This document shows, in pieces, positions 51,865 through 64,000 of a DNA stretch of 64,000 nucleotides (within the stretch, counting starts at the first letter, position 1; each line of letters starts with the position of its first letter). The stretch comes from Myxococcales bacterium. GTDB lineage: Bacteria > Myxococcota_A > UBA9042. Location of the stretch: assembly GCA_037441385.1 (NCBI GenBank), contig JBBISH010000002.1, positions 96,001 through 160,000 on the forward strand, given 5' to 3'. A program made the translations under genes and the position numbers. Below the pieces are notes generated by a model, which was not told the origin of the DNA, searched no databases, and saw only the letters and a program-made list of their open reading frames with translations.

Positions 51865-54714
51865 CTACAGCTGGTCAACGGTCCAGGGCGCCTCCAGCTC
51901 GTGCAACTGCGCGGAGAACGAGGCAAATTTGGCATCCACTTCGGAATTGTGGATCGCCGCCAGCACCTTGATGCGCTTCTTGCCGTGGTTCTCGCTGCGC
52001 GCCACGACAAACCCTTGCTCGCGGAAAATCTGCAGCGCGTTGGTCAAGTTGACCTTGCTGATGGCCTCGTAGCACTCGACGTGCCCCAGGTCGAAGGCCT
52101 TCTGCGCGTCGATCTGCACGCGGTCCAAGAAGGCTGTCTCGGGCAGTGGCCCGCCCTCTAGGTGGCGGAGCGAGCGCGCCATCAGCGCGTACGACTCGAT
52201 AAAGCTTTGCAGTAGGCGCGCATACAGTCGCAGGGCACCGCGCACCAGGCTCGCCACCACCAGGTTGCCGTCGCCGCGGCGGATCAGCCAACCGGCGGCC
52301 ACAAAGTCGTCCAAGGTCCGCGTGTACAGGTCTTCAAAGCTTTGACCCGGCTCGTAGACGAATTCGAATTTCAGCAGGCGCGACAAGAACTTGGTCAGCG
52401 ACGCCAGCATGTCCGGCGGAATCTCGTTGCCGCCTTGCAGCTTGGCCACCGTGGCGCAGGCCAGCAAGGCTTCGGGCACCAGGAGGTGCAACATGTTGTT
52501 CTTGTAGTAGTCCAGGTGCATGCGCCCTTCGGAGCGGACGATGTACACGGCCTCGCCGCCAAAGTCGCGGCGCAAGATCCAGCGCGCCCCCTCGAACAAA
52601 TCCAAGGCCTTGCCCACAATGGGCGCCACGGCCGCACCCAGCACACGCGCGCGCTCGCTCTGGACGCCAAAGGGATCAGGGGCGCCCTCGGCCTCTAGGT
52701 AGCGGGCCTGATCGCGGGTCTCGGCCTCCAAGATCGCCTGGCGCCGGACCTGCACGGCGGTCACCAAGGGCTCGGACAAGACGGCGCCGCGACGCATGGC
52801 CAGGTCGAGTAAGTAGCCAACCCGCAACAACAAATCTTGGTGCAGGATGCCTTTGTGGGCCTTGGTCAGCAGCACCGCGGCGGTCAGCGCGGTCGGAGTC
52901 AACACCGCGGCCTGGTTGATGCGGCCCAGGATGCGGTAGCCGCACACTTTCAGAGCGCGTTCAAAGGCCTTGGGATCGCGCTCGTCCGCTGGCGCCAGCG
53001 CGCCGTGCTCGTCCAGCAGGTCGCGGACCGACATCGGTTCGCCAAACTGGATGCGGATGCGCCCGTACTTGTGGACCAGCACGCTGGTGGCCTTGAGCAC
53101 CTCGACCGGAGATTCAGCCTTTTTTTCGCCGCCTTCTAGCTCCTTGCGGTAGGACTTCTCTTCGATCAGGCGCTCGTAGCCAAAATTGGTGGGGACCAGC
53201 ACGACGTCGTCGCGCAGCCCATCGGCCACCGTCTCGAGCACGTGCTTGATGAGCCCGAACTTGGGCGGCAGCAGCTTGCCGGTGCGCGAGCGCCCGCCTT
53301 CGGGGAAGAACTCGATCCAGTGGCCGTCGGCGAGCAGCTTGCGAAAATAGTGTCGAAATACGGCGCCATAGATCGGCTGCCCCTGAAACGACCGCCGCAG
53401 GAAGAAGGCACCGGCATGGCGAAACAACGGCCCCAGCGGAAAGAACGACAGGTTGGCACCGGCGGCAATGTGCGGTGGGATCAGGCCGTGGCGATAAAAG
53501 ACATACGAAATCACGAGATAGTCGATGTGCGACTTGTGGCTCGGCACCATCACCACCGGCGCCGTGCGGCCGGCTTGGCGGACCCGCTCCAGCCCCTCTT
53601 CGTCGACTTCCAGGCCTTCGTAGATGCGCGCCCACAAAAAGGTCAGCATGAACGAGAAGGCCGCGACCATGCCCATGCGATAGCGGGCGGCGATCTCGTT
53701 CAGGTTTTGGTCGGCCTCGCGCAAGACGCTCTCTAGCGGTCGCCCCAGTTCGGTGGCGATGCGCTGCAGATCTTCGCGCACCGCTGGGTCGGCCAAGATC
53801 TCGGCGCGCAACTCGTCGGGCTGCTTGATGGGCGCCCCACGGACCACGCGGTCTTCTTGCTGCAGGGCCGCGACGATGCACAGCCGGAGTTGCTCGCTCA
53901 GCACCGTGTCGTCGCTGACTTCGGCGTGTTCATCCATAAAAGCGCGCAGGTTGATGGCATCCGCCATGCGCACGTGCGCGCGGCGGTGATTCAGAACAAA
54001 GCTCACCAACTTGCGAATTCGGCCCGGCGCGGTGAAGTCGCCAAAGAACTCGTCCAGGATCGACGACTTGGCCCGATCCGGATCGCGTTCCCACACCAGC
54101 ACCTGCGGCACGATCAGCAGCGGGTAGTCCAGCTCACGTTGGGTGGCGATCAACTCGCGCAAATAGGGCAATTGCGGCCGCGGCGTCAGCAAGTCCAGCA
54201 GCGAAAAGCCGCGCCGCAAGAACAACGTCACTGGCTCGCGCCGCCGGAGTAGACCGCGCAGCAGTTGATCCTCGGGCAGCTGCGGTTGGCGCAGCACGCG
54301 CCGGCGGAACCAACCCACCAGGGCCCGTCGCCATGGCTGCGTCCAGGTCAGCGACACACCGTTGGCAAACCGGGAGAGCGGAAGTTTCTCGCGCAAATAG
54401 AGCCAGTTGAAGTACAGATAGTCGAGCAGGCTGATGGTGCCCATCACCACCACCAGCGCTCCTTCGCGCGACAAGGCCTGCCAGTCGCTGCTGTAGCGCG
54501 CAGGTACCCGCACAGGCGCAAAAAACACGCGGGCAAACCAACGGGCCAGCCAACCCAGTTGTGGCTGCATCGCCGATGGGTGCACAAGATCGCGGGGTTG
54601 CAGCTGGTCAGCCGCGGGCTGGATCGGCACGCCCACGGGCGTCATGGCGGCGCGCGGGCCGGGAGCGGGCACGGCAACCGGATCCTGGGGTTGGTGGGGC
54701 GGCACGTCGGACAT
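51865..54714 (-). CDS. plsB: Glycerol-3-phosphate acyltransferase PlsB-like
   Basis: PSHKSHIDY (HxxxxD), IAAGANL, GAFFLRRSF and FFPEGGRSRTGK motifs; start MSDVPP. Confidence 0.9.
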   Translation of the reverse strand: MSDVPPHQPQDPVAVPAPGPRAAMTPVGVPIQPAADQLQPRDLVHPSAMQPQLGWLARWFARVFFAPVRVPARYSSDWQALSREGALVVVMGTISLLDYLYFNWLYLREKLPLSRFANGVSLTWTQPWRRALVGWFRRRVLRQPQLPEDQLLRGLLRRREPVTLFLRRGFSLLDLLTPRPQLPYLRELIATQRELDYPLLIVPQVLVWERDPDRAKSSILDEFFGDFTAPGRIRKLVSFVLNHRRAHVRMADAINLRAFMDEHAEVSDDTVLSEQLRLCIVAALQQEDRVVRGAPIKQPDELRAEILADPAVREDLQRIATELGRPLESVLREADQNLNEIAARYRMGMVAAFSFMLTFLWARIYEGLEVDEEGLERVRQAGRTAPVVMVPSHKSHIDYLVISYVFYRHGLIPPHIAAGANLSFFPLGPLFRHAGAFFLRRSFQGQPIYGAVFRHYFRKLLADGHWIEFFPEGGRSRTGKLLPPKFGLIKHVLETVADGLRDDVVLVPTNFGYERLIEEKSYRKELEGGEKKAESPVEVLKATSVLVHKYGRIRIQFGEPMSVRDLLDEHGALAPADERDPKAFERALKVCGYRILGRINQAAVLTPTALTAAVLLTKAHKGILHQDLLLRVGYLLDLAMRRGAVLSEPLVTAVQVRRQAILEAETRDQARYLEAEGAPDPFGVQSERARVLGAAVAPIVGKALDLFEGARWILRRDFGGEAVYIVRSEGRMHLDYYKNNMLHLLVPEALLACATVAKLQGGNEIPPDMLASLTKFLSRLLKFEFVYEPGQSFEDLYTRTLDDFVAAGWLIRRGDGNLVVASLVRGALRLYARLLQSFIESYALMARSLRHLEGGPLPETAFLDRVQIDAQKAFDLGHVECYEAISKVNLTNALQIFREQGFVVARSENHGKKRIKVLAAIHNSEVDAKFASFSAQLHELEAPWTVDQL

Positions 54715-54813
54715 GGCCCGATCTTGAGCCGAACGCACTGCCCGTGCAAGCGCGTGCAATTTCCCCTGCCCCTGCGCTACAACACGCTCCGGCAACCGCC
54801 GCGGCGGGGAGCG

Positions 54814-55695
54814 ATGCTGCGGGCGAGCGATCACTACCAAGAACTGCGCATGGGTCGCCGCGGGTTGTGGCTGGCGGGCATCTCGCTGGACGGCGACGTG
54901 CGCCGCGGCGTGGGCGTGGCGTGCGACGAGCGGCGCGCGCTGCGTTCGCATAGCAACCTTCTGTGTAGCCAAGAGCTTGCGCTATGTCTGGGTTTGCGTC
55001 GCGGCCTTTTCGTGCCGTGGCAGCAGACGCTGATCTTGGGCAAGCTCGCGGTGGCGCTCAGTCCGGCGGGCGCGGGTCCGGGATCGGCACTCGCTCGACT
55101 GCACGCGGGCGGCACGGATTGGCTCGACGCTAGGGCCGTATGTCTGGATGACTTCTTGGGGTTTGCGCCGGCCGCCGTGCCCGAAGCCGCGGTGGTGGTC
55201 CTGGATGGTCGGCGGGCTGGCGAGGCGTGGGCCAGCGCGGCGCAGCTGCACCAGTGGGTCGCCGGGTTGCCGGACGGGGCACGTCTGGCGCTGGACGACG
55301 CACTTTTGGCTTGGGCGGCGGCCAATGCTCTGCAAGCGGCGGGCCGAGCCTGGCGGACCACTCCCACGTTGCGGCGCGCTTGGCGCGGACGGTTGGGCGC
55401 GCGGGCGGCCCTGCCCAGCCACCGCCAGGCAACGCTGACCCTGGGCCTTGCCCACGAAGCCAGGATGGATCCAGACTATTTTGCCGGCGACCCCCTCGAT
55501 GCGCCGGCCGGCGTGCGGCACACGCTGGCGGTGACTCGGCGGCTGCACGGCGACCAGGCCCGCGCGGTGGTTCAAGCGAGCGGCGCACGCGTAGTGGTGG
55601 CCGTGGGCGGCAACGGCGAGGCACTGGCCCAGCAACTACCTGAACAGCAAGTGATTGTTCTGCGCCCGCTGGCCCAGCCGCTGCTTGTCGACTAG
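54814..55695 (+). CDS. Degenerate MBL-fold/beta-CASP exonuclease-like protein
   Basis: LSPAGAGPGSA resembles PAGHxLGSA; C-terminal VQASGARVVVAVGGNGEALA; metal-binding His residues absent. Confidence 0.55.
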   Translation: MLRASDHYQELRMGRRGLWLAGISLDGDVRRGVGVACDERRALRSHSNLLCSQELALCLGLRRGLFVPWQQTLILGKLAVALSPAGAGPGSALARLHAGGTDWLDARAVCLDDFLGFAPAAVPEAAVVVLDGRRAGEAWASAAQLHQWVAGLPDGARLALDDALLAWAAANALQAAGRAWRTTPTLRRAWRGRLGARAALPSHRQATLTLGLAHEARMDPDYFAGDPLDAPAGVRHTLAVTRRLHGDQARAVVQASGARVVVAVGGNGEALAQQLPEQQVIVLRPLAQPLLVD

Positions 55696-55722: not shown

Positions 55723-56763
55723 ATGACGAGTCCGATGATCGGCGTGGTGACCAACCCCAACTCGCGCAAGAATCGCCTGAACCCGGGTCGCTACGAGCAA
55801 ATGCGCGAGACGGTGGGGCCGCTGGGGCTGGTGCGCCGCACCCAAGACGTCACGTCGATCGCCGAGGTTGTCCGCGAGTTCCTGGACGTGGGCGTGCGCT
55901 ACTTTGTGGCCGATGGCGGCGACGGCGCCTTCCACTGGTTGATGAATGTCGTCAGGGAGGTCCTCGCCGAGCGACCGGGCACAACCTGGCCGGCGATTCT
56001 GCCGACCAACGCCGGTACCATTGACTTCATCGGTCGCAAGGCCGGCGTGGTGGGCCATTGCGACACCCTGTTGCCGGCGTTGGTGCGGCGCATCCGCCAG
56101 GGCGACCTGCCCAGTACCGTGGATCTGACCACCTGTCACCTGCGCGGCGTGTACGGCCCCGACGCGGATCGACCCGGTAAACCGTTTGAGAAGCTGGGGT
56201 TTGCTTGCGCCCTGGCCGGAGTGGCACAGCGGTTTTTCGACAAGTTCTACGCTGGCGATCAGCAGGACGCCGCCGGCATCGCCATGTTGGTGGGCAAGAT
56301 CATCCTGTCGCAGGCGACCCGGGCGGTGCCCCTGAAATGGCTGCCCATTCCTGTGGAATTTCGCTATTTTGCCGAGCCCGTCTTCGATCCGCTACCCGCA
56401 AAGGTGTGGCTCGACGGCGAGTTGTTGCCAATTCCGCTGTATCGGGACCTGGACGTGGGCTCGATCGACATCAACTTGGCCAACGTTTTCCGCTGTTTCC
56501 CCTACGCGGCTGAGGGCCGGTTGCTCCACGTCCAATGTGGCGACATCAGCGCCCCCGAGATCGTGCGCAACTTGCCGCGGGTGTTTGCCGGCAAGACCAT
56601 GGAAGTCGAAGGGTTCGTGCAGCAGCGCGCCCAGTCGCTCAAGGTCGTGCCGCTGCAGGGCCGCGCGCTGGACCCGGTGATCGACGGCGAACTGTTCTGG
56701 GGCCTGACCGAGCTGGAAGTCACCGTTGGGCCACAGGTTCCCGTGGTGCAGCTGGTCGCCTGA
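55723..56763 (+). CDS. Diacylglycerol kinase family protein
   Basis: VTNPNS, GGDG, PTNAGT and IDGEL motifs; AAGGAG RBS. Confidence 0.85.
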   Translation: MTSPMIGVVTNPNSRKNRLNPGRYEQMRETVGPLGLVRRTQDVTSIAEVVREFLDVGVRYFVADGGDGAFHWLMNVVREVLAERPGTTWPAILPTNAGTIDFIGRKAGVVGHCDTLLPALVRRIRQGDLPSTVDLTTCHLRGVYGPDADRPGKPFEKLGFACALAGVAQRFFDKFYAGDQQDAAGIAMLVGKIILSQATRAVPLKWLPIPVEFRYFAEPVFDPLPAKVWLDGELLPIPLYRDLDVGSIDINLANVFRCFPYAAEGRLLHVQCGDISAPEIVRNLPRVFAGKTMEVEGFVQQRAQSLKVVPLQGRALDPVIDGELFWGLTELEVTVGPQVPVVQLVA

Positions 56764-58188
56764 TCAATCGAGCGGCAGCAGCGACGCCGTAAAGCCGCGC
56801 AGGACGTCGCGCTGCTCGACGATGCGATAGCCCTTGAGTTGATCACGGTTGGCCCACACGGCACCCACCACTTCGATCAGGTAGTCCATGTGGCTCTGGG
56901 TATAGGTGCGGCGCGGGAAGGTCAGGCGCACCAGCTCCAAGTTGGCCGTGAAGTCGTGGTGCCCGTCCGGATCGGGCCGGCCGAACATCAGCGTGCCCAC
57001 CTCGACACCGCGCACACCGCCCTCGACATACATCGCGTTGACCAGCGAAACGCCTGGGTATTGCCAGCCCGGGATGTGCGGCGCAAAGGCCGCGGCGTCG
57101 ATGTAGACCGCGTGGCCGCCCGGTGGCCGCATCATCGGCACGCCCATCTGGTCAAGCCGATCAAAGACGTAGCGCACCGACGCGTGGCGATAGGCCAAAT
57201 AGTCTTCGTCCAGCACTTCTTGCAGACCCTGGGCCAACGCCTCTAGGTCGCGGCCCGCCAGCCCGCCGTAGGTGGGAAAGCCTTCGGTCAAGATGAGGCG
57301 GGTACGACAGCGCTCGGCCAGTTCGGGGTCGTTCAGACCGAGCAGCCCGCCGATGTTGACCAGGCCGTCCTTCTTGGCCGACATGGTGAAGCCGTCGCAC
57401 AAGCTGAAGCACTCGCGGGCGATGTCGGCGGCGCTGCGATCGCCCTGCCCTGGCTCGCGCATCTTGATCAGCCAGGCATTTTCGGCAAAGCGCGCAGCAT
57501 CCAAGAACAGCGGCACGCCGAACTCGTCGCACAACGCCCGCACCGCCCGCAGATTGCCCAGGCTGACCGGCTGGCCGCCGCCGCGGTTGTTGGTGATGGT
57601 GACGAGCACCAGCGGCACGTCCGCACCGCGATCCGCCAGCAAACGCCCCAACTTGCGTACGTCGAGATCGCCCTTGAACGGCATATCGGTGCGCGGATCG
57701 CTGGCGCCGTCGTAGAGCAGATCGACCGCCTGGGCGCCCACGAACTCCACGTTGGCGCGGGTGGTGTCAAAATGCGAGTTCGAGGGCACGACCTGGCCCT
57801 CTTTGCACAGCGTGGTGAACAGGATGTGCTCAGCTGCGCGGCCCTGGTGGGTGGGGATGACGTACTGCACGCCGGTCAAATCGCGGACCACCTTTTCGAG
57901 CTTGTAGAATGAGCGCGCACAGGCATAGGTCTCGTCGCCGATCATCATGGCCGCCCACTGCGCCGCACTCATCGCGCCGGTGCCCGAGTCGGTGAGCAGA
58001 TCGATGAGCACGCTCTCTGCATGGAGCTTGAACACGTTCCAGTTGGCGTCTTCGATGGCGGCCTGGCGCTGGCTGCGGGTGGTCATCCCCAGGGGCTCGA
58101 CCGACTTGATGCGAAAGGGTTCGATGATGGTGTTGAAACGGTGCTCCACGGCAACCTCGGCACGCTGGCGATAGGTGGCATCCTGCAC
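56764..58188 (-). CDS. tnaA: Tryptophanase (beta-eliminating lyase)
   Basis: EPFRIKSVEP, IDLLTDSGT, HQGRAAE, HFDTT (Asp as in tryptophanase), MSAKKD PLP lysine, EGFPTYGG; lacks the ERG arginine of tyrosine phenol-lyase. Confidence 0.88.
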   Translation of the reverse strand: MQDATYRQRAEVAVEHRFNTIIEPFRIKSVEPLGMTTRSQRQAAIEDANWNVFKLHAESVLIDLLTDSGTGAMSAAQWAAMMIGDETYACARSFYKLEKVVRDLTGVQYVIPTHQGRAAEHILFTTLCKEGQVVPSNSHFDTTRANVEFVGAQAVDLLYDGASDPRTDMPFKGDLDVRKLGRLLADRGADVPLVLVTITNNRGGGQPVSLGNLRAVRALCDEFGVPLFLDAARFAENAWLIKMREPGQGDRSAADIARECFSLCDGFTMSAKKDGLVNIGGLLGLNDPELAERCRTRLILTEGFPTYGGLAGRDLEALAQGLQEVLDEDYLAYRHASVRYVFDRLDQMGVPMMRPPGGHAVYIDAAAFAPHIPGWQYPGVSLVNAMYVEGGVRGVEVGTLMFGRPDPDGHHDFTANLELVRLTFPRRTYTQSHMDYLIEVVGAVWANRDQLKGYRIVEQRDVLRGFTASLLPLD

Positions 58189-58398
58189 GAGCTACGGTGT
58201 CGGTGCGGGTAGGCCGAATCATCGACCGCACTGGCCAAGGGCGGAAGGGGGCAGAACGCCCCATCGTCACCGACTTGTCGCACGATCTGCCTGGCAAATC
58301 CGTGTGACCAAGGGGGTGCCGCAGCCCATGACTGGACCCCGACACCTGCGACCCGCTACCCTGGCGGCCGGCCGCCACACCGCAGCCGCGGAAGTCCT

Positions 58399-60957
58399 GT
58401 GTCGCAGTCCCAGCCCAAGTTCCCCGAGCTGCTCGCGCCGGCGGGCGACGCTGATGCCCTGGCGGCGGCCCTGCAAGCCGGCGCCGACGCGGTCTATTTT
58501 GGCCTGGACGACGGTCTGAATGCCCGCGCCCGTGCCGCCAACTTTGCCCTGGCCGAGCTGCCCCATACCTGCGCGCGCATCCACCGCGCCGGTGCCCTGG
58601 CCTACCTGACCTTGAACACTGTGGTCTTCGAGAACGAATTGCCGTTCTTGGAGTCGGTGTTGCGGCAAGTGGCGGCGGCCGGGGTGGACGCCGTGATCGT
58701 TCAGGATCCCGCGGTCGCGCTGCTGTGCCGGGCGCTTGCGCCGACGCTGCATGTGCACGCGTCGACCCAAATGACGGTGTCCAGCCCTGAAGCGAGCCAA
58801 TTCGCTGCGCAATTGGGCGTGATGCGCGTGGTGGTGCCGCGCGAGCTGAGCCTGCCCGAGATCGCCCAGATGGCGCAGAAGACGCCGCTGGAGCTCGAAG
58901 TCTTCGTACATGGCGCACTGTGCGTGTCCTGGTCGGGGCAGTGCCTGACCAGCGAGGCGTGGGGCGGTCGCTCGGCCAATCGCGGCCAGTGCGCGCAGTC
59001 GTGCCGAATGCCTTACGAACTGCTGGTCGATGGCGAGCGGCGCGACCTGGGCGACCTGCGCTACCTGCTCTCGCCCCTAGACCTCAGCGGCCTAGCGCAT
59101 GTTCCCGAGTTGGCGCGGCTGGGTGTGGCCGGGCTCAAGATCGAAGGGCGGCAGAAAGCGGCGCACTACGTGCAGACCGCTGTGGCGGCCTACCGGCGCC
59201 AACTCGATCACCTGGCCAAGGGCCATAGCGTGCCGGCGGGCCTGGTTCACGCCGATCAGACGACCATGGCGCTGTCGTATAGCCGCGGACTTTCGCATGG
59301 CTTTCTGACAGGACCGCAACACCAGCGCACGGTCGAGGGGCGGTTCCCCAAACACCGCGGCGTGTTGTTGGGTCAGGTTGCCGAAGTGCGCGGCGCGGCG
59401 TTGAAGATCGTGCGCGCAGTTCGCGAGGGTGACCAGGCGCAAATACCGCAAGTGCGCGCGGGCATGGGCATCGGTATCGATTTGGGCCGGCCCGAAAGCG
59501 ATGAACCCGGCGGGCCGCTTTTCGGCGTGGAAGGCACCGCGGACGGCTGGTGGCTGCGGCTGGGGCAAGGCGCGCAAGCGGTGGACGTGCGGCAAGTGCA
59601 GCCGGGTCATCGGGTTTGGCTCACGCAGGATCCGACCATCGCGCGCGAAACCGACAAACTGGTGGCGGCACCGGCGCCCGAGGGCCGTATTCCACTGGCC
59701 GTGGTGGTCAGCGGCCAAGTGGGTCAGGCGCTGCAGGTGCGCTGGACGGCCAAGGGCCCAGTGGGGCGCGACGTGGCGGTGCAGGCGCAGAGCGCGATGG
59801 ACCTGCAGCCGGCCGCGGCAGCGGGCCTGGACGCGGCGATGCTGCAAGACAAATTGCTGTCCTTGGGCGGCACGCCTTTCCGTTGCCGCGACTTGCAGAT
59901 CGACGGGTTGGCGGGGGGCCTGCACCTGCCCGTATCCGAGCTCAAGCGCTTGCGCCGCGAGTTGGCGTCCGCCCTGGAGCAGAACATCCACGCGGCCCAC
60001 CGCCACGCCACCCACCCAGAACCCATCGCAGAGCAGGTCCGGCAGCAGGCCGCGGCCCTGCACGCCCGCCGACCGTGGCCCAAGCACGACCAGGCCCAAC
60101 TCCTGCCGCTTGTGCGCAGCGAGGCCCAGCTCGAGGCCGTGATCGAGGCCGGACTGCCCAAAGTCGCGCTGGATTGGATGGAGCTGGTGGGGCTGACCCG
60201 CGCCGTCGATCGCGCCCGTGCAGCGGGATTGCAGGTGGTCCTGGCCACGCCGCGGATCCAAAAGCCCGGGGAAGAGGGCTTTGACCGGCGCTTGGCGCGT
60301 CTGCAGCCCGATGGCGTGCTGGTTCGCCATTGGGGCGGATTGATGCATTTTGCCACACTGGCACAACCTCCGCAGATTCACGGCGATTTCAGCCTAAATG
60401 TTACGAATTCTGTCACCGCCCACCACTTGTGGTCCCTGGGCGCCGACACCTTGTGTGCGGCCCACGATCTGGATGTGGCGCAGTTGCACCACCTGCTCGA
60501 TCACGTGCCGGCCGAGCGGATCGAGGTGGTGATCCACCACCACATCGCCACGTTCCACACCGAGCACTGCGTCTATGCCCATGTGTTGAGCGAGGGCCAG
60601 GACTATCGCAGCTGCGGCCGGCCGTGCGAACAGCACACCCTGAGCCTGCAGGACCACCAGGGCCGCGCCCATCCGGTCATCGTCGACGTGGGTTGCCGCA
60701 ACACGGTGTTCAACGCCCAGGCGCAATCGGCCGCTGGCGCGGTCGCCGGCCTGCGCAGGCGCGGTGTGCAGCACTTCCGCGTGGAATTCGTGCGCGAAGA
60801 CCACGCCACGACCCTGGCTGTGCTGCGTGCCTACCAGGCCCTGCTCGCCGGTTCACTGTCGGCCAAGGCGCTCCTTGGCCAAATCGGCGTACACGAGCAA
60901 TTTGGCGTCACTTCGGGGACCATGCGCGCCATGGAGAGCCGCGATGGCAAGCTCTGA
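58399..60957 (+). CDS. U32 family Fe-S hydroxylase, long RlhA-like (DUF3656) form
   Basis: PELLAPAG, GADAVY, HASTQ, HGALCVSWSGQC, SANRGQCAQSCR, LKIEGR, LGGTPF and PVSELK motifs, plus a second C-terminal U32-like half. Confidence 0.9.
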   Translation: MSQSQPKFPELLAPAGDADALAAALQAGADAVYFGLDDGLNARARAANFALAELPHTCARIHRAGALAYLTLNTVVFENELPFLESVLRQVAAAGVDAVIVQDPAVALLCRALAPTLHVHASTQMTVSSPEASQFAAQLGVMRVVVPRELSLPEIAQMAQKTPLELEVFVHGALCVSWSGQCLTSEAWGGRSANRGQCAQSCRMPYELLVDGERRDLGDLRYLLSPLDLSGLAHVPELARLGVAGLKIEGRQKAAHYVQTAVAAYRRQLDHLAKGHSVPAGLVHADQTTMALSYSRGLSHGFLTGPQHQRTVEGRFPKHRGVLLGQVAEVRGAALKIVRAVREGDQAQIPQVRAGMGIGIDLGRPESDEPGGPLFGVEGTADGWWLRLGQGAQAVDVRQVQPGHRVWLTQDPTIARETDKLVAAPAPEGRIPLAVVVSGQVGQALQVRWTAKGPVGRDVAVQAQSAMDLQPAAAAGLDAAMLQDKLLSLGGTPFRCRDLQIDGLAGGLHLPVSELKRLRRELASALEQNIHAAHRHATHPEPIAEQVRQQAAALHARRPWPKHDQAQLLPLVRSEAQLEAVIEAGLPKVALDWMELVGLTRAVDRARAAGLQVVLATPRIQKPGEEGFDRRLARLQPDGVLVRHWGGLMHFATLAQPPQIHGDFSLNVTNSVTAHHLWSLGADTLCAAHDLDVAQLHHLLDHVPAERIEVVIHHHIATFHTEHCVYAHVLSEGQDYRSCGRPCEQHTLSLQDHQGRAHPVIVDVGCRNTVFNAQAQSAAGAVAGLRRRGVQHFRVEFVREDHATTLAVLRAYQALLAGSLSAKALLGQIGVHEQFGVTSGTMRAMESRDGKL

Positions 60958-61252
60958 CCCGCCACAAGCTACTGCAACTGCACGCGATTCACGGCGCCGC
61001 ATTGATGCCATCGACGCTCGGCTCGTAGCCCTTTTGGCCGAGCGGGCGGCGGTCGTGCGCGCGATTTGGGACGAGAAAGAACGCCGCGGGGCGCCTCTGC
61101 GCGATCCGCAGCGCGAAGCGGCGATCCAGGCCGACTTGGTGGAGCTGGCGCGGCAGCACGGCTTGGACCCCACGGCTGTCGCGACGATCTTTGCCCACAT
61201 TGTCGGCGTGGACCTGCACACCGGCCGGCGCGCGGATCAGCCCGCCACGTAG
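60944..61252 (+). CDS. Stand-alone chorismate mutase (AroQ/type II)
   Basis: RRRIDAIDARLVALLAER....K.....RDPQRE motif; GGAG RBS; start overlaps the U32 stop. Confidence 0.85.
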   Translation: MASSDPPQATATARDSRRRIDAIDARLVALLAERAAVVRAIWDEKERRGAPLRDPQREAAIQADLVELARQHGLDPTAVATIFAHIVGVDLHTGRRADQPAT

Positions 61253-62211
61253 CGACCAGCCAACCGCCCGACCACGTTGCGTACGTCGAGAAAGCGCCAG
61301 TTCGACGGCAGTTCCCACGCTTCGGGCGCCGCCAGGCGCAGGGTTTCGGCCACAGCAGCCGGTAGTGCGTCGCTGTCGCCGCTGTGCACCTTGACGGCCA
61401 AACCCAGGTCGCGTGCGGGCAACGCCATGCAAAATACCCCTTGGGCGCCGATTTTGGCGGCCAGCGGTTCGCGCGCGTGGCGCACCACCGAGGCGTCAAA
61501 GCGATCCGTACCCGAAGTGAGCAGCGGGTGCTCGGCCATGGCCCGACCAATTGCGCCCAGCCGCGTGGGATCGTCCTCGGCCGCCATCGCCCGCGCCACC
61601 CGCCACCAGCCGTGGGCGATCGCGGTCAGTGGAAGGCAAAATGTGGGAACGCCACAGCCGTCCAGCGCCAGCTTGGGGTTCACGGTCGTCCACTCGGCCA
61701 CGCGCTCGGCCACATACCGCTGCAGGGGATGCTCGGGGGGCCGATAGTCGCTGCTCCAGCCCTGCCGAGCCGCCGCCGCCAGCATGAATGCGTGCTTGCC
61801 CGAGCAGTTGTTGTGAATGGCCGAGAACTCTTTGTTTTGGCGCAGGATCTTCTCCGCGCTGGCCGTGTGCACGGGCGGGTGGGTGCCGCACAGCAAGCCG
61901 TGCTCGGCCACGTCGAAGCGCGCCAGTACCTCGCGAACCCAGTGCACATGCTCGGGCTCGCCCGAGTGCGACGCGGCACCGATGGCCAATTCTTCTGGCC
62001 GCACCTTGGGATAGCCCAGCAGGTCCAGCGAGCATGCCAACTGGAACGGCTTGGCCGCCGACCGCCATGTGGTCCAGACATCGTCGCCGGCCTGCCACTC
62101 GATCCGGCCCGCGCGCACGGCCACGGCCGACCACGGGTGACGGGTCTCGATGCAGGTGTCCAGATCGTCCGCTCCGGCCAAACCGCCGCGCATCTGCAGG
62201 ATTTCGGGCAT
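61237..62211 (-). CDS. L-asparaginase II (Rhizobium-type) family
   Basis: RSAAKP, SHSGE, NNCSGKH, DGCG and KIGAQG motifs. Confidence 0.9.
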   Translation of the reverse strand: MPEILQMRGGLAGADDLDTCIETRHPWSAVAVRAGRIEWQAGDDVWTTWRSAAKPFQLACSLDLLGYPKVRPEELAIGAASHSGEPEHVHWVREVLARFDVAEHGLLCGTHPPVHTASAEKILRQNKEFSAIHNNCSGKHAFMLAAAARQGWSSDYRPPEHPLQRYVAERVAEWTTVNPKLALDGCGVPTFCLPLTAIAHGWWRVARAMAAEDDPTRLGAIGRAMAEHPLLTSGTDRFDASVVRHAREPLAAKIGAQGVFCMALPARDLGLAVKVHSGDSDALPAAVAETLRLAAPEAWELPSNWRFLDVRNVVGRLAGRYVAG

Positions 62212-62401
62212 GATGGCTGTCTGCCGTGGCGTGGGTGCCAGGCCCAAGCTATGCGGCTTGCGGCGCGAGCGCAAGACCGCGACCAGGCAAGGGGCGCCCC
62301 GTCCTGGGTGCCGCGAGTGATCCTGCGGCCGTACGAAAAAGTTGACGATAGTCGGCGTTGCGCGACCCTTGCGCTGCGCCCGTTGGCGCCCGAGCAAGCT
62401 C

Positions 62402-63310
62402 ATGGCCGTCGTGCACGATTTGGGTCAACGTCTTCGCCAGGTTGTGGGGGGTATGGTGCCCAACCCGACCCAGGCTTGGAATCCGAGCCCGGCCTCCGTG
62501 CCGTTTGCCCAAACCAGCCCGATGCGGGCGCAAGTCATCGCCGTTGCTGCGCAAAAGGGCGGTGTGGGCAAGACCACCACCGCCGTGCACTTGGCGGCGG
62601 GCCTGGCCGAAATCCACGGACTCTCGGTGTTGCTGGTCGACTTGGACGCCCAGGGCCATGTCGCGTCGTCGCTGCGCGCGCATGTCCGCGCCACTTCTGA
62701 GCAAAGCCTGACCCAGACGCTCCTGAGCTTGGACCCAGACCTGTTGCCGGCCACTTTGCCGACCACCATCCCCGGCCTGCACGTTACGGGCGCCGACAAG
62801 CAATTAGCCAGCGCAGAGGCGCAGTTAGCTGCTCGAATGGGCCGCGAGATGATCTTGGCACGGGCGTTGCGCGGTGCACGCGGCGGCTACGACGTCATCG
62901 TGCTCGACTGTCCGCCGAACCTGGGCCTGTTGACCTTGAACGCGCTGTTCGCCGCCGACCACCTGCTGGTGCCGTGCGACCTGTCGGTCCTGGCGCTGGA
63001 GGGCGTCGACGACGTGATGCGCACCCTGCAGAACCTGCAGCTGATGTTCGGCCGCGCCCCGGCGCTGCTCGGCCTGCTGCACACCCGCGTCGACCGCCGC
63101 AACCCCAAGCAAAACGCCGCGATTCGCCGCGCGCTGCAGCAGTCCTACCACGGGCTGTCGCTGCAGACCGAGATTGCCACCAACACTGCGCTGCCGGGCG
63201 CCCAGCTGGCGGGCCAGACGGTGTTCGCAGCCTCGCCCGAGTCCACGGGCGCGCGCGACTACGCAGCCTTGGCCAGCGAAGTGTACGAACGCGTGATCAA
63301 GGGCCGCTGA
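62402..63310 (+). CDS. ParA/Soj family ATPase (start uncertain)
   Basis: QKGGVGKTT, DLDAQG and DCPPNLG motifs. Confidence 0.92.
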   Translation: MAVVHDLGQRLRQVVGGMVPNPTQAWNPSPASVPFAQTSPMRAQVIAVAAQKGGVGKTTTAVHLAAGLAEIHGLSVLLVDLDAQGHVASSLRAHVRATSEQSLTQTLLSLDPDLLPATLPTTIPGLHVTGADKQLASAEAQLAARMGREMILARALRGARGGYDVIVLDCPPNLGLLTLNALFAADHLLVPCDLSVLALEGVDDVMRTLQNLQLMFGRAPALLGLLHTRVDRRNPKQNAAIRRALQQSYHGLSLQTEIATNTALPGAQLAGQTVFAASPESTGARDYAALASEVYERVIKGR

Positions 63311-63359: not shown

Positions 63360-63866
63360 CTACGCCGCCGCGCCGGGCTTGGTCTCAGCAAAGATCGCGT
63401 CGAGCTCCACAGCCACGTCGTCCTCTTCCTGCGCGCGCGCCACGCTCAACTCTTTGATCAGCAAAGTCCGCGCCTGGTCAAGCATCTTGCGCTCGCCGAA
63501 CGACAGGGCCTTGGTGTACTTCAGCACCGAAAGGTCGCGCATGACCTCGGCCACGTCGAAGATCGAACCCGTATTGATTTTCTCGACATAGCCGCGGTAG
63601 CGCCGGTTCCAGGTCACGTTGCCGCCGCCCGCGGTGCGCTCTTTCAGCACGCGGTAGATGCGCTCGACCTCGGCATTGCCGATCACCTTGCGCAGGCCGA
63701 CCGAGCCGACCTTGCTGACGGGGATCATGATTTTGCGGTTGGTGTTCACCACGCGCAGCATGTACAGGATCTCAGTATTTCCAGCGATTTCCTTGGATTC
63801 GATGGCGGTGATTTCGGCGACCCCTTGGCCCGGGTAGACAGCTCGATCTCCGATCTTGAACAGCAT
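63360..63866 (-). CDS. carD: CarD/CdnL family RNA polymerase-binding regulator
   Basis: FKIGDRAVYPGQGV, IMIP, WNRRYR and LSFGERKMLDQA motifs; AGGAG RBS; no AT-hook tail, so CdnL-like. Confidence 0.93.
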   Translation of the reverse strand: MLFKIGDRAVYPGQGVAEITAIESKEIAGNTEILYMLRVVNTNRKIMIPVSKVGSVGLRKVIGNAEVERIYRVLKERTAGGGNVTWNRRYRGYVEKINTGSIFDVAEVMRDLSVLKYTKALSFGERKMLDQARTLLIKELSVARAQEEDDVAVELDAIFAETKPGAAA

Positions 63867-64000
63867 GGTGATCTCCTGACTGGCCTGAACTCTGCGAAAC
63901 CCTATCTCTATGCTCAACTTCCTGCCTGGGCGGCTCAAGGCTTTGTGCGGTGACTCGACCACCGAACTGCTGGCGCGAAGGGCCGCAGGGGCGGAACGTC

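Follow-up and report, generated by a model that had tools for sequence, protein, structure and literature searches.

In the genome of a Myxococcales bacterium (UBA9042; assembly GCA_037441385.1, contig JBBISH010000002.1), the gene for a long RlhA-type protein of the Peptidase_U32 (U32) family is overlapped at its end by the gene for a small chorismate mutase (CM) of the AroQ class. The pair lies in a stretch of 64,000 nucleotides (nt), contig positions 96,001-160,000 of the + strand, hereafter the window, and its features are numbered from the first letter of this stretch. We consider it likely, at a probability of about 0.75, that the two genes form a module, with the CM providing prephenate for the RlhA-type hydroxylase; here we infer the mutase activity, the use of prephenate and the rRNA target. 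Chorismate is still made by the cell; the small AroQ protein would turn it into prephenate, from which the U32 protein of 852 amino acids (aa) would take the oxygen for a hydroxylation that does not depend on O2. The mutase would then be a co-substrate supplier for RNA modification and no longer an amino acid enzyme. RlhA, TrhP and UbiU-UbiV have been reported to require prephenate (PMC5727448, PMC6599085, PMC10990095), and prephenate is described as the oxygen donor for UbiU-UbiV and has been proposed to have this role for all U32 proteins (PMC10990095).

That the mutase is dedicated to this supply had been suggested in an initial annotation of the window, and the comparative data support it. 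As a unit the pair is conserved, whereas the genes flanking it are common to the closest relatives only, and the CM is the sole match to the Pfam family CM_2 in its genome, where searches for prephenate dehydratase (PDT), PDH_N, CM_1, CmoA and a second U32 gene found none. PDT was found in none of the 35 checked genomes with the pairing (16 + 8 + 2 + 9), and genomes with a PheA-type CM-PDT fusion have an RlhA-type gene without an adjacent CM. Finally, six of the nine genomes of the window's family that lack the U32 ortholog have no CM either, a co-loss that argues for dedicated supply as well.

The overlapping genes and their products

The features of the pair are as follows.

58399..60957, + strand: U32 gene, long RlhA-type; GTG start, TGA stop at 60955-60957, 852 aa (open reading frame, Pfam and AlphaFold2 model)
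58648..59319, + strand: N-terminal U32 domain (RlhA1-type), residues 84-307 (profile match, 6.9e-75)
58921..59004, + strand: cysteine cluster C175-x6-C182-x15-C198-x3-C202 with E167 ahead of it, likely a 4Fe-4S site (ortholog conservation)
59614..59988, + strand: DUF3656 domain, residues 406-530, the beta-rich middle (Pfam)
60289..60864, + strand: C-terminal second U32 domain (RlhA2-type; second PF01136 stretch, 5.8e-14)
60568..60696, + strand: second cysteine cluster C724, C739, C743 and C766 (ortholog conservation)
60933..60938, + strand: Shine-Dalgarno-like hexamer GGAGAG for the CM gene, within the U32 gene and 5 nt 5' of the CM start codon (sequence)
60944..60957, + strand: overlap of the U32 gene end and the CM gene start, 14 nt (sequence)
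60944..61252, + strand: CM gene, AroQ class, 'W42 / truncated helix 3' subfamily; ATG at 60944, TAG stop at 61250-61252, 102 aa (CM_2 match, alignment with 1ECM, conservation)

The coordinates confirm that the CM start codon sits 14 nt inside the end of the U32 gene, as the initial annotation had it, and its AroQ mutase of roughly 100 aa is indeed a protein of 102 aa with a CM_2 match of 2.6e-19. The upstream gene is divergent and the downstream gene convergent, so the pair is a stand-alone two-gene unit. Most likely the two genes are an operon transcribed into one mRNA, and the 14-nt overlap together with the internal Shine-Dalgarno site suggests a probable coupling of CM translation to the U32 gene end. 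A scan of positions 58000-61700 gave no promoter-like sites and three terminator-like sites, against 2.2 expected.

The 852-aa protein matches Pfam Peptidase_U32 (PF01136) in two stretches (1.1e-89) and DUF3656 (PF12392) once (2.7e-18). The combination of these two domains is described as exclusive to the RlhA subfamily, where roughly half the homologs carry a second C-terminal U32 motif (RlhA2a/b) and the C-terminal cysteines are clustered (Kimura et al. 2017, PMC5727448). In E. coli RlhA, residues E161, C169 and C176 are reported to be essential (PMC6599085), and the spacing of E167, C175 and C182 in the window protein is identical to theirs (E-x7-C-x6-C; mapped by spacing only). In an alignment of 78 U32 orthologs, E167, C175, C182, C198 and C202 are invariant, and so are C724, C739, C743 and C766 of the second U32 domain. 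The hallmarks of the RlhA subfamily, i.e., U32 with DUF3656, a second U32 motif, and the glutamate with two cysteines, are thus all found in the window protein. Judged by domain architecture and conserved residues, it would be a long-form RlhA with two U32 barrels, each with a four-cysteine cluster, joined by DUF3656, and family membership suggests that its target is probably C2501 of 23S rRNA in a 50S precursor.

An AlphaFold2 model of the U32 protein (predicted local distance difference test, pLDDT, 88.7; predicted template modelling score, pTM, 0.91) shows two alpha/beta barrels (residues ~10-310 and ~567-830) flanking a middle part rich in beta structure. The first cysteine cluster has a pLDDT of 53, which is unsurprising in a loop that was modelled with no cluster bound. 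When this model was used for a fold search, the sole solved U32 structure, 5D88 (Mk0906), ranked fourth with a template modelling (TM) score of 0.57 on the target, and the other matches were generic triosephosphate isomerase (TIM) barrels; a sequence search of the protein against the PDB gave no matches. Among the NCBIfam models, the best match to the N-terminal U32 domain was TrhP, at 206 bits versus a cut-off of 534, and the UbiU and UbiV scores were far under their cut-offs.

The CM matches CM_2 with 69.6 bits (cut-off 27), covering profile positions 2-72 of 80 only, and stays under the cut-offs of all NCBIfam CM equivalogs. Its best match among solved structures is 1ECM (8.5e-06), the AroQ-alpha domain of E. 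coli PheA (EcCM), and HMMER pairs CM residues 17-88 with 1ECM residues 11-82. The charged active-site residues of EcCM, which we take to be R11', R28, K39, D48, R51 and E52, are all kept and correspond in this alignment to R17, R34, K45, D54, R57 and E58. Unlike EcCM, the window CM is a stand-alone protein of 102 aa with a short helix 3, no equivalents of Ser84 and Gln88, and an invariant tryptophan before the catalytic lysine. Across 15 operon-linked CMs with 35-87% identity, R17, R34, K45, R57, E58 and W42 are invariant, and D54 and G88 are conserved in at least 90%. W42 stands three residues ahead of the catalytic lysine, and helix 3 stops early, at the conserved glycine, within the motif IFAHIVGVD (residues 82-90). 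The initial annotation had remarked that this C-terminal helix seems to lack the usual Ser and Gln; the Ser84 and Gln88 columns indeed hold D90 and G94, contrary to what is typical of AroQ helix 3, and this feature characterises a subfamily. Among the 137 closest short homologs, S (51) and Q (63) are the most frequent residues at the two positions, and W42 and G88 occur together in 36. The window CM belongs to this subfamily, whose third helix is truncated and has no Ser84 and Gln88 equivalents but which keeps the Arg/Arg/Lys/Arg/Glu core.

A weakened mutase of this kind may suffice, because the demand would be about one prephenate per ribosome. Such a low demand would explain the loss of Gln88 here and the variability of the Gln88 position among the partner CMs of Planctomycetota described below. 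Within the genus of the window's genome (G001-G010, loci L007-L016) the identity of the operon CMs is 35-64% (87% in G007) and that of their U32 partners 63-83%. The CM evolves much faster than its U32 partner, in keeping with a small protein whose efficiency is under relaxed constraint.

Conservation of the pair and the apparently missing phenylalanine/tyrosine branch

The sample of relatives comprised 41 genomes, of which 25, the window's own included, belong to its family (f1). A U32 ortholog (>55% identity) was found in 16 of these 25, and in 14 of the 16 this ortholog is followed directly by a CM on the same strand, the match-to-match gap being at most 73 nt. The two exceptions are G007, where the locus is cut at contig ends, and G013, where a CM of the same type is on another contig. 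Adjacency is thus conserved in relatives, and further families and a second phylum show it as well, as described below. Each of the 16 genomes has exactly one CM_2 match. PDT was found in none of the 25 f1 genomes, and PDH_N exceeded its cut-off in none of the 16 with a U32 ortholog. The six f1 genomes with neither a U32 ortholog nor any CM_2 match are 61-100% complete; in two others without the ortholog, G015 and G017, the CM lies beside PDH_N, and in the ninth, G019, it stands alone. As to the G013 mutase, its protein-search match holds one TAG stop, and the narrower span of its CM_2 match has no stop.

The window's genome (6.63 Mb, 221 contigs, 90.9% complete) encodes chorismate synthase and one U32 gene only. 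Profile searches of this genome returned the U32-adjacent CM as the sole CM_2 match, and no AroH-type CM_1, PDT, PDH_N or CmoA. When the CM-PDT proteins and the prephenate dehydrogenase (PDH)-CM proteins of Corallococcus and Pyxidicoccus were compared with it by tblastn, only the CM domain was matched, weakly, and no match to the PDT or PDH parts was obtained under E = 0.5. The organism thus appears to be without prephenate dehydratase and prephenate dehydrogenase, and since both appear to be missing, prephenate would have no other known use in this cell. The initial annotation had regarded it as fatal to its proposal if this were the only housekeeping mutase of the genome. It is the sole mutase, but no PDT/PDH pathway was found for it to serve, and because no housekeeping phenylalanine/tyrosine (Phe/Tyr) pathway is seen, this outcome supports dedicated supply.

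A wider sample of 201 Myxococcota genomes, for which counts were tallied by hand from search listings, contained DUF3656 in 45, CM_2 in 154 and PDT in 89 genomes, and 44 of the 45 DUF3656 genomes had CM_2. Among the 112 genomes without PDT, CM_2 was present in all 36 with DUF3656 versus 32 of the 76 without it. The CM adjoins the RlhA-type gene in 22 genomes (12 of 13 in f1, 8 of 9 in f41, one in f32, G117, and one in f48, G146, the latter in divergent orientation), 15 of which were checked on fetched loci, and PDT was found in none of these 22. PDH_N was not found in the eight f41 genomes with the pairing, was at the cut-off in G146 (26.6 versus 26.5 bits), and was under the cut-off in G117. 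The only f41 genome without adjacency, G138, carries a CM-PDT fusion.

A scan of species genomes with the U32 ortholog alignment gave 80 loci, 19 of which have a CM within the fetched flanks, 10 downstream on the same strand and 9 upstream on the opposite strand. The 10 downstream cases are Myxococcota metagenome-assembled genomes (MAGs), including ones labelled Archangium and Myxococcaceae, and three of them are duplicates of genomes already counted. Of the nine divergent cases seven are labelled Planctomycetota; the distance of the CM from the U32 start is up to ~400 nt in seven of the nine and 1.2-1.7 kb in the other two. Each of these nine genomes has a single CM_2 match, adjacent to U32, and neither PDT nor PDH_N was found in any of them. 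The survey for adjacency that the initial annotation called for therefore extends the pairing beyond f1 to f41, f32, f48 and Planctomycetota-labelled genomes, in three gene orders and two phyla. The fusion that it also had in mind did not turn up: the 120 best U32 homologs were without PF01817, and the 150 best CM representatives included no protein of ~950 aa. Long open frames hold the CM in G133 and G143, but they differ from the U32 frame and were rejected as fusions.

Converse cases were found in Pyxidicoccus fallax and three Corallococcus genomes, all four of which have a U32 ortholog, no CM within 2.5 kb of it, and a CM-PDT fusion; in the two that were tested for PDH, it lies beside a second CM. 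A phenylalanine requirement of Myxococcus was not borne out, as M. xanthus is listed with branched-chain auxotrophy only in the one source consulted, and Corallococcus and Pyxidicoccus carry PheA.

In a tree of the CMs (102 columns) the Planctomycetota CMs form a clade of 8 rows with support of 99/94, and the deep forks are unresolved, so that one and several origins are indistinguishable. The U32 orthologs at L057, L058, L068, L073, L080 and L081, from Planctomycetota-labelled MAGs, are 51-56% identical to that of the window, against 38-45% for the Pirellulales, Gemmatales and Isosphaerales orthologs, none of which adjoins a CM. There are hints in these sequences that the pair may have been transferred between Myxococcota and one planctomycete lineage.

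Contrary observations and alternative explanations

Several observations weigh against dedicated supply. In G013 the CM (L018, C29:179378-179629), which is of the W42 type, is unlinked from the U32 gene (C31:5669-8218), and G019 (89% complete) has a stand-alone CM while a U32 ortholog was not found. In the phylum sample, the CM is elsewhere in the genome in 14 of the 36 DUF3656 genomes that lack PDT, and G034 holds a U32 ortholog without a CM_2 match. In the species scan, 61 of the 80 ortholog loci have no CM in the fetched flanks, although 13 of those 61 had less than 300 nt downstream. Related genomes are not independent, so the 35 paired genomes are counted here as three or four lineages. 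The window CM, with D90 and G94 in place of Ser84 and Gln88, could be a poor enzyme. Finally, the absence of PDT and PDH was judged by Pfam models on draft genomes and MAGs, and a table of PMC13759103 lists diverged prephenate dehydratases and dehydrogenases of other bacteria that standard models miss.

Diverged enzymes of the latter kind would allow the CM to be an ordinary housekeeping enzyme of Phe/Tyr synthesis whose downstream enzymes are unrecognised and whose position beside U32 is meaningless, and the fact that it is the only CM of the genome agrees with this. Such an explanation is extremely unlikely in our view, considering that the pairing recurs across gene orders and phyla, with PDT found in none of the checked genomes that have it, and a hidden Phe/Tyr pathway would not predict that most f1 genomes without the U32 ortholog are also without a CM. 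The small protein could also be a non-catalytic subunit or sensor of the hydroxylase that binds chorismate or prephenate, while chorismate would rearrange to prephenate spontaneously. [quoted passage not shown] Yet five charged active-site residues are invariant across the 15 CMs compared above, the operon partners in f41 and f32 are canonical CMs (Ser or Cys at position 84, Gln88, and no W42), and the retention of CM in all 36 PDT-less genomes of the phylum sample with an RlhA-type gene fits a need for enzymatic supply, which makes a purely binding role very improbable.

Somewhat more can be said for the CM as a partner-dependent 'junior' enzyme, weak by itself and active, or handing over prephenate, only when docked on the U32 protein, but we regard this as unlikely too. 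The model for it is MtCM, the AroQ-delta mutase of Mycobacterium tuberculosis that is activated by DAHP synthase; AroQ-delta is reported to have less than 1% of normal activity alone and to gain more than 100-fold upon partner binding (PMC7762937). Like MtCM, the window CM is a small stand-alone protein with a shortened C-terminus that has no Gln88 equivalent, and, by analogy, its gene partner could be its protein partner. The overlapping genes would co-produce the two proteins, and the W42 plus G88 signature is kept in the 36 short homologs counted above. Against this, the window CM keeps the catalytic lysine, K45, which is invariant, where AroQ-delta has arginine, and its H1-H2 loop has the proline and aspartate (P51, D54) that have been tied to autonomous activity and that AroQ-delta does not have (PMC7762937). 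Since K45, P51 and D54 are kept, it is only a partial analogue of AroQ-delta and not a member, and its candidate partner is a U32 hydroxylase instead of DAHP synthase. Moreover, the canonical CMs in the f41 operons indicate that the pairing does not need a crippled mutase, and the searches of the best U32 and CM homologs gave no fused protein. A complex prediction for U32 and one CM copy, run with a CM monomer although AroQ mutases are dimers and run without controls, gave a score of 0.00, which weighs neither for nor against docking. It is a doubtful proposition that mutases of the 'W42 / truncated helix 3' type form a new AroQ subclass whose members depend on a partner, docking on the long RlhA and being switched on there, with prephenate made at the active site. 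If it were true, unstable and otherwise useless prephenate would never accumulate in cells without Phe/Tyr synthesis. The stand-alone CM of G019 (L026, C679:10864-11097), on a short contig, likewise has a tryptophan ahead of the catalytic lysine.

Known systems, novelty and neighbouring genes

UbiU-UbiV, which serves ubiquinone hydroxylation without O2, is a heterodimer, in which two different U32 units come together; in the window protein two such units are domains of one chain. Both are of the U32 family with 4Fe-4S clusters and a prephenate co-substrate, each of these presumably so in the case of the window protein (PMC10990095). Unlike UbiU-UbiV, the window protein is of another subfamily with DUF3656, has no UbiT, and would act on RNA and not on a quinone precursor. 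TrhP (YegQ), a U32 paralog described as a prephenate-dependent hydroxylase of tRNA U34 (PMC6599085), has no DUF3656 and no second U32 domain, and the window protein is far under the TrhP cut-off. E. coli RlhA (YdcP) is required for 5-hydroxycytidine at C2501 of 23S rRNA (Kimura et al. 2017, PMC5727448), and the window protein resembles the RlhA subfamily in domain combination, second C-terminal U32 motif, E-x7-C-x6-C spacing and clustered C-terminal cysteines. The difference lies in the source of prephenate, which in E. coli comes from the housekeeping enzymes PheA and TyrA, whereas here the operon itself encodes the mutase and a Phe/Tyr branch is apparently missing.

In a full-text search of the literature, which covered main texts, no description of a U32-CM pairing was found. 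The papers that contain both RlhA and chorismate mutase (PMC5727448, PMC6599085, PMC10990095) mention the mutase, in their accessible passages, only as a domain of PheA, and these passages contain nothing on an operon, neighbourhood or fusion. According to passages of PMC10990095 and PMC6599085, no U32 protein has yet been seen to hydroxylate directly in vitro, and the evidence for prephenate's role comes from E. coli genetics and isotope labelling. Lineages that apparently lack the Phe/Tyr branch, and have one mutase tied to an RlhA-type gene, would provide an independent evolutionary test of this chemistry. A chorismate mutase kept as a co-substrate supplier would also imply that the RNA modification is worth the upkeep of an enzyme, and the pair would offer a natural minimal system of chorismate, CM and hydroxylase for reconstitution. 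For annotators there is a caution, namely that a lone CM is not evidence of Phe/Tyr prototrophy.

The genes around the pair are listed below.

51865-54972, - strand: PlsB-like glycerol-3-phosphate acyltransferase, 1035-aa frame, an ordinary neighbour
55723-56763, + strand: weak DAGK_cat-like protein, an ordinary neighbour
56764..58188, - strand: beta-eliminating lyase of the tryptophanase / tyrosine phenol-lyase family, upstream of and divergent from the U32 gene
61237..62403, - strand: asparaginase II-like gene, convergent with the CM gene, 3' ends overlapping by 16 nt (Pfam, 5.7e-77)
62342-63310, + strand: ParA/MinD-type ATPase, an ordinary neighbour
63360-63962, - strand: putative CarD/CdnL-like open reading frame, labelled from its sequence, an ordinary neighbour

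The PlsB-like, DAGK_cat-like, ParA/MinD-type and CarD/CdnL-like neighbours have no part in aromatic biosynthesis, and the asparaginase II-like gene has no NCBIfam match. The lyase reaches 649 bits against the NCBIfam subfamily 'tryptophanase' and is under the equivalog cut-offs of TnaA and tyrosine phenol-lyase; a homologue was not found in the fetched flanks of other genomes, which for the closest relatives span only ~1.5 kb. The TnaA-like and asparaginase II-like genes were considered as parts of the module and rejected, as they are common to the closest relatives only. The earlier statement that no other aromatic amino acid genes are nearby thus stands for biosynthetic genes and fails for catabolic ones, given the lyase, which is an aromatic amino acid catabolic enzyme inside an apparent Phe/Tyr auxotroph.

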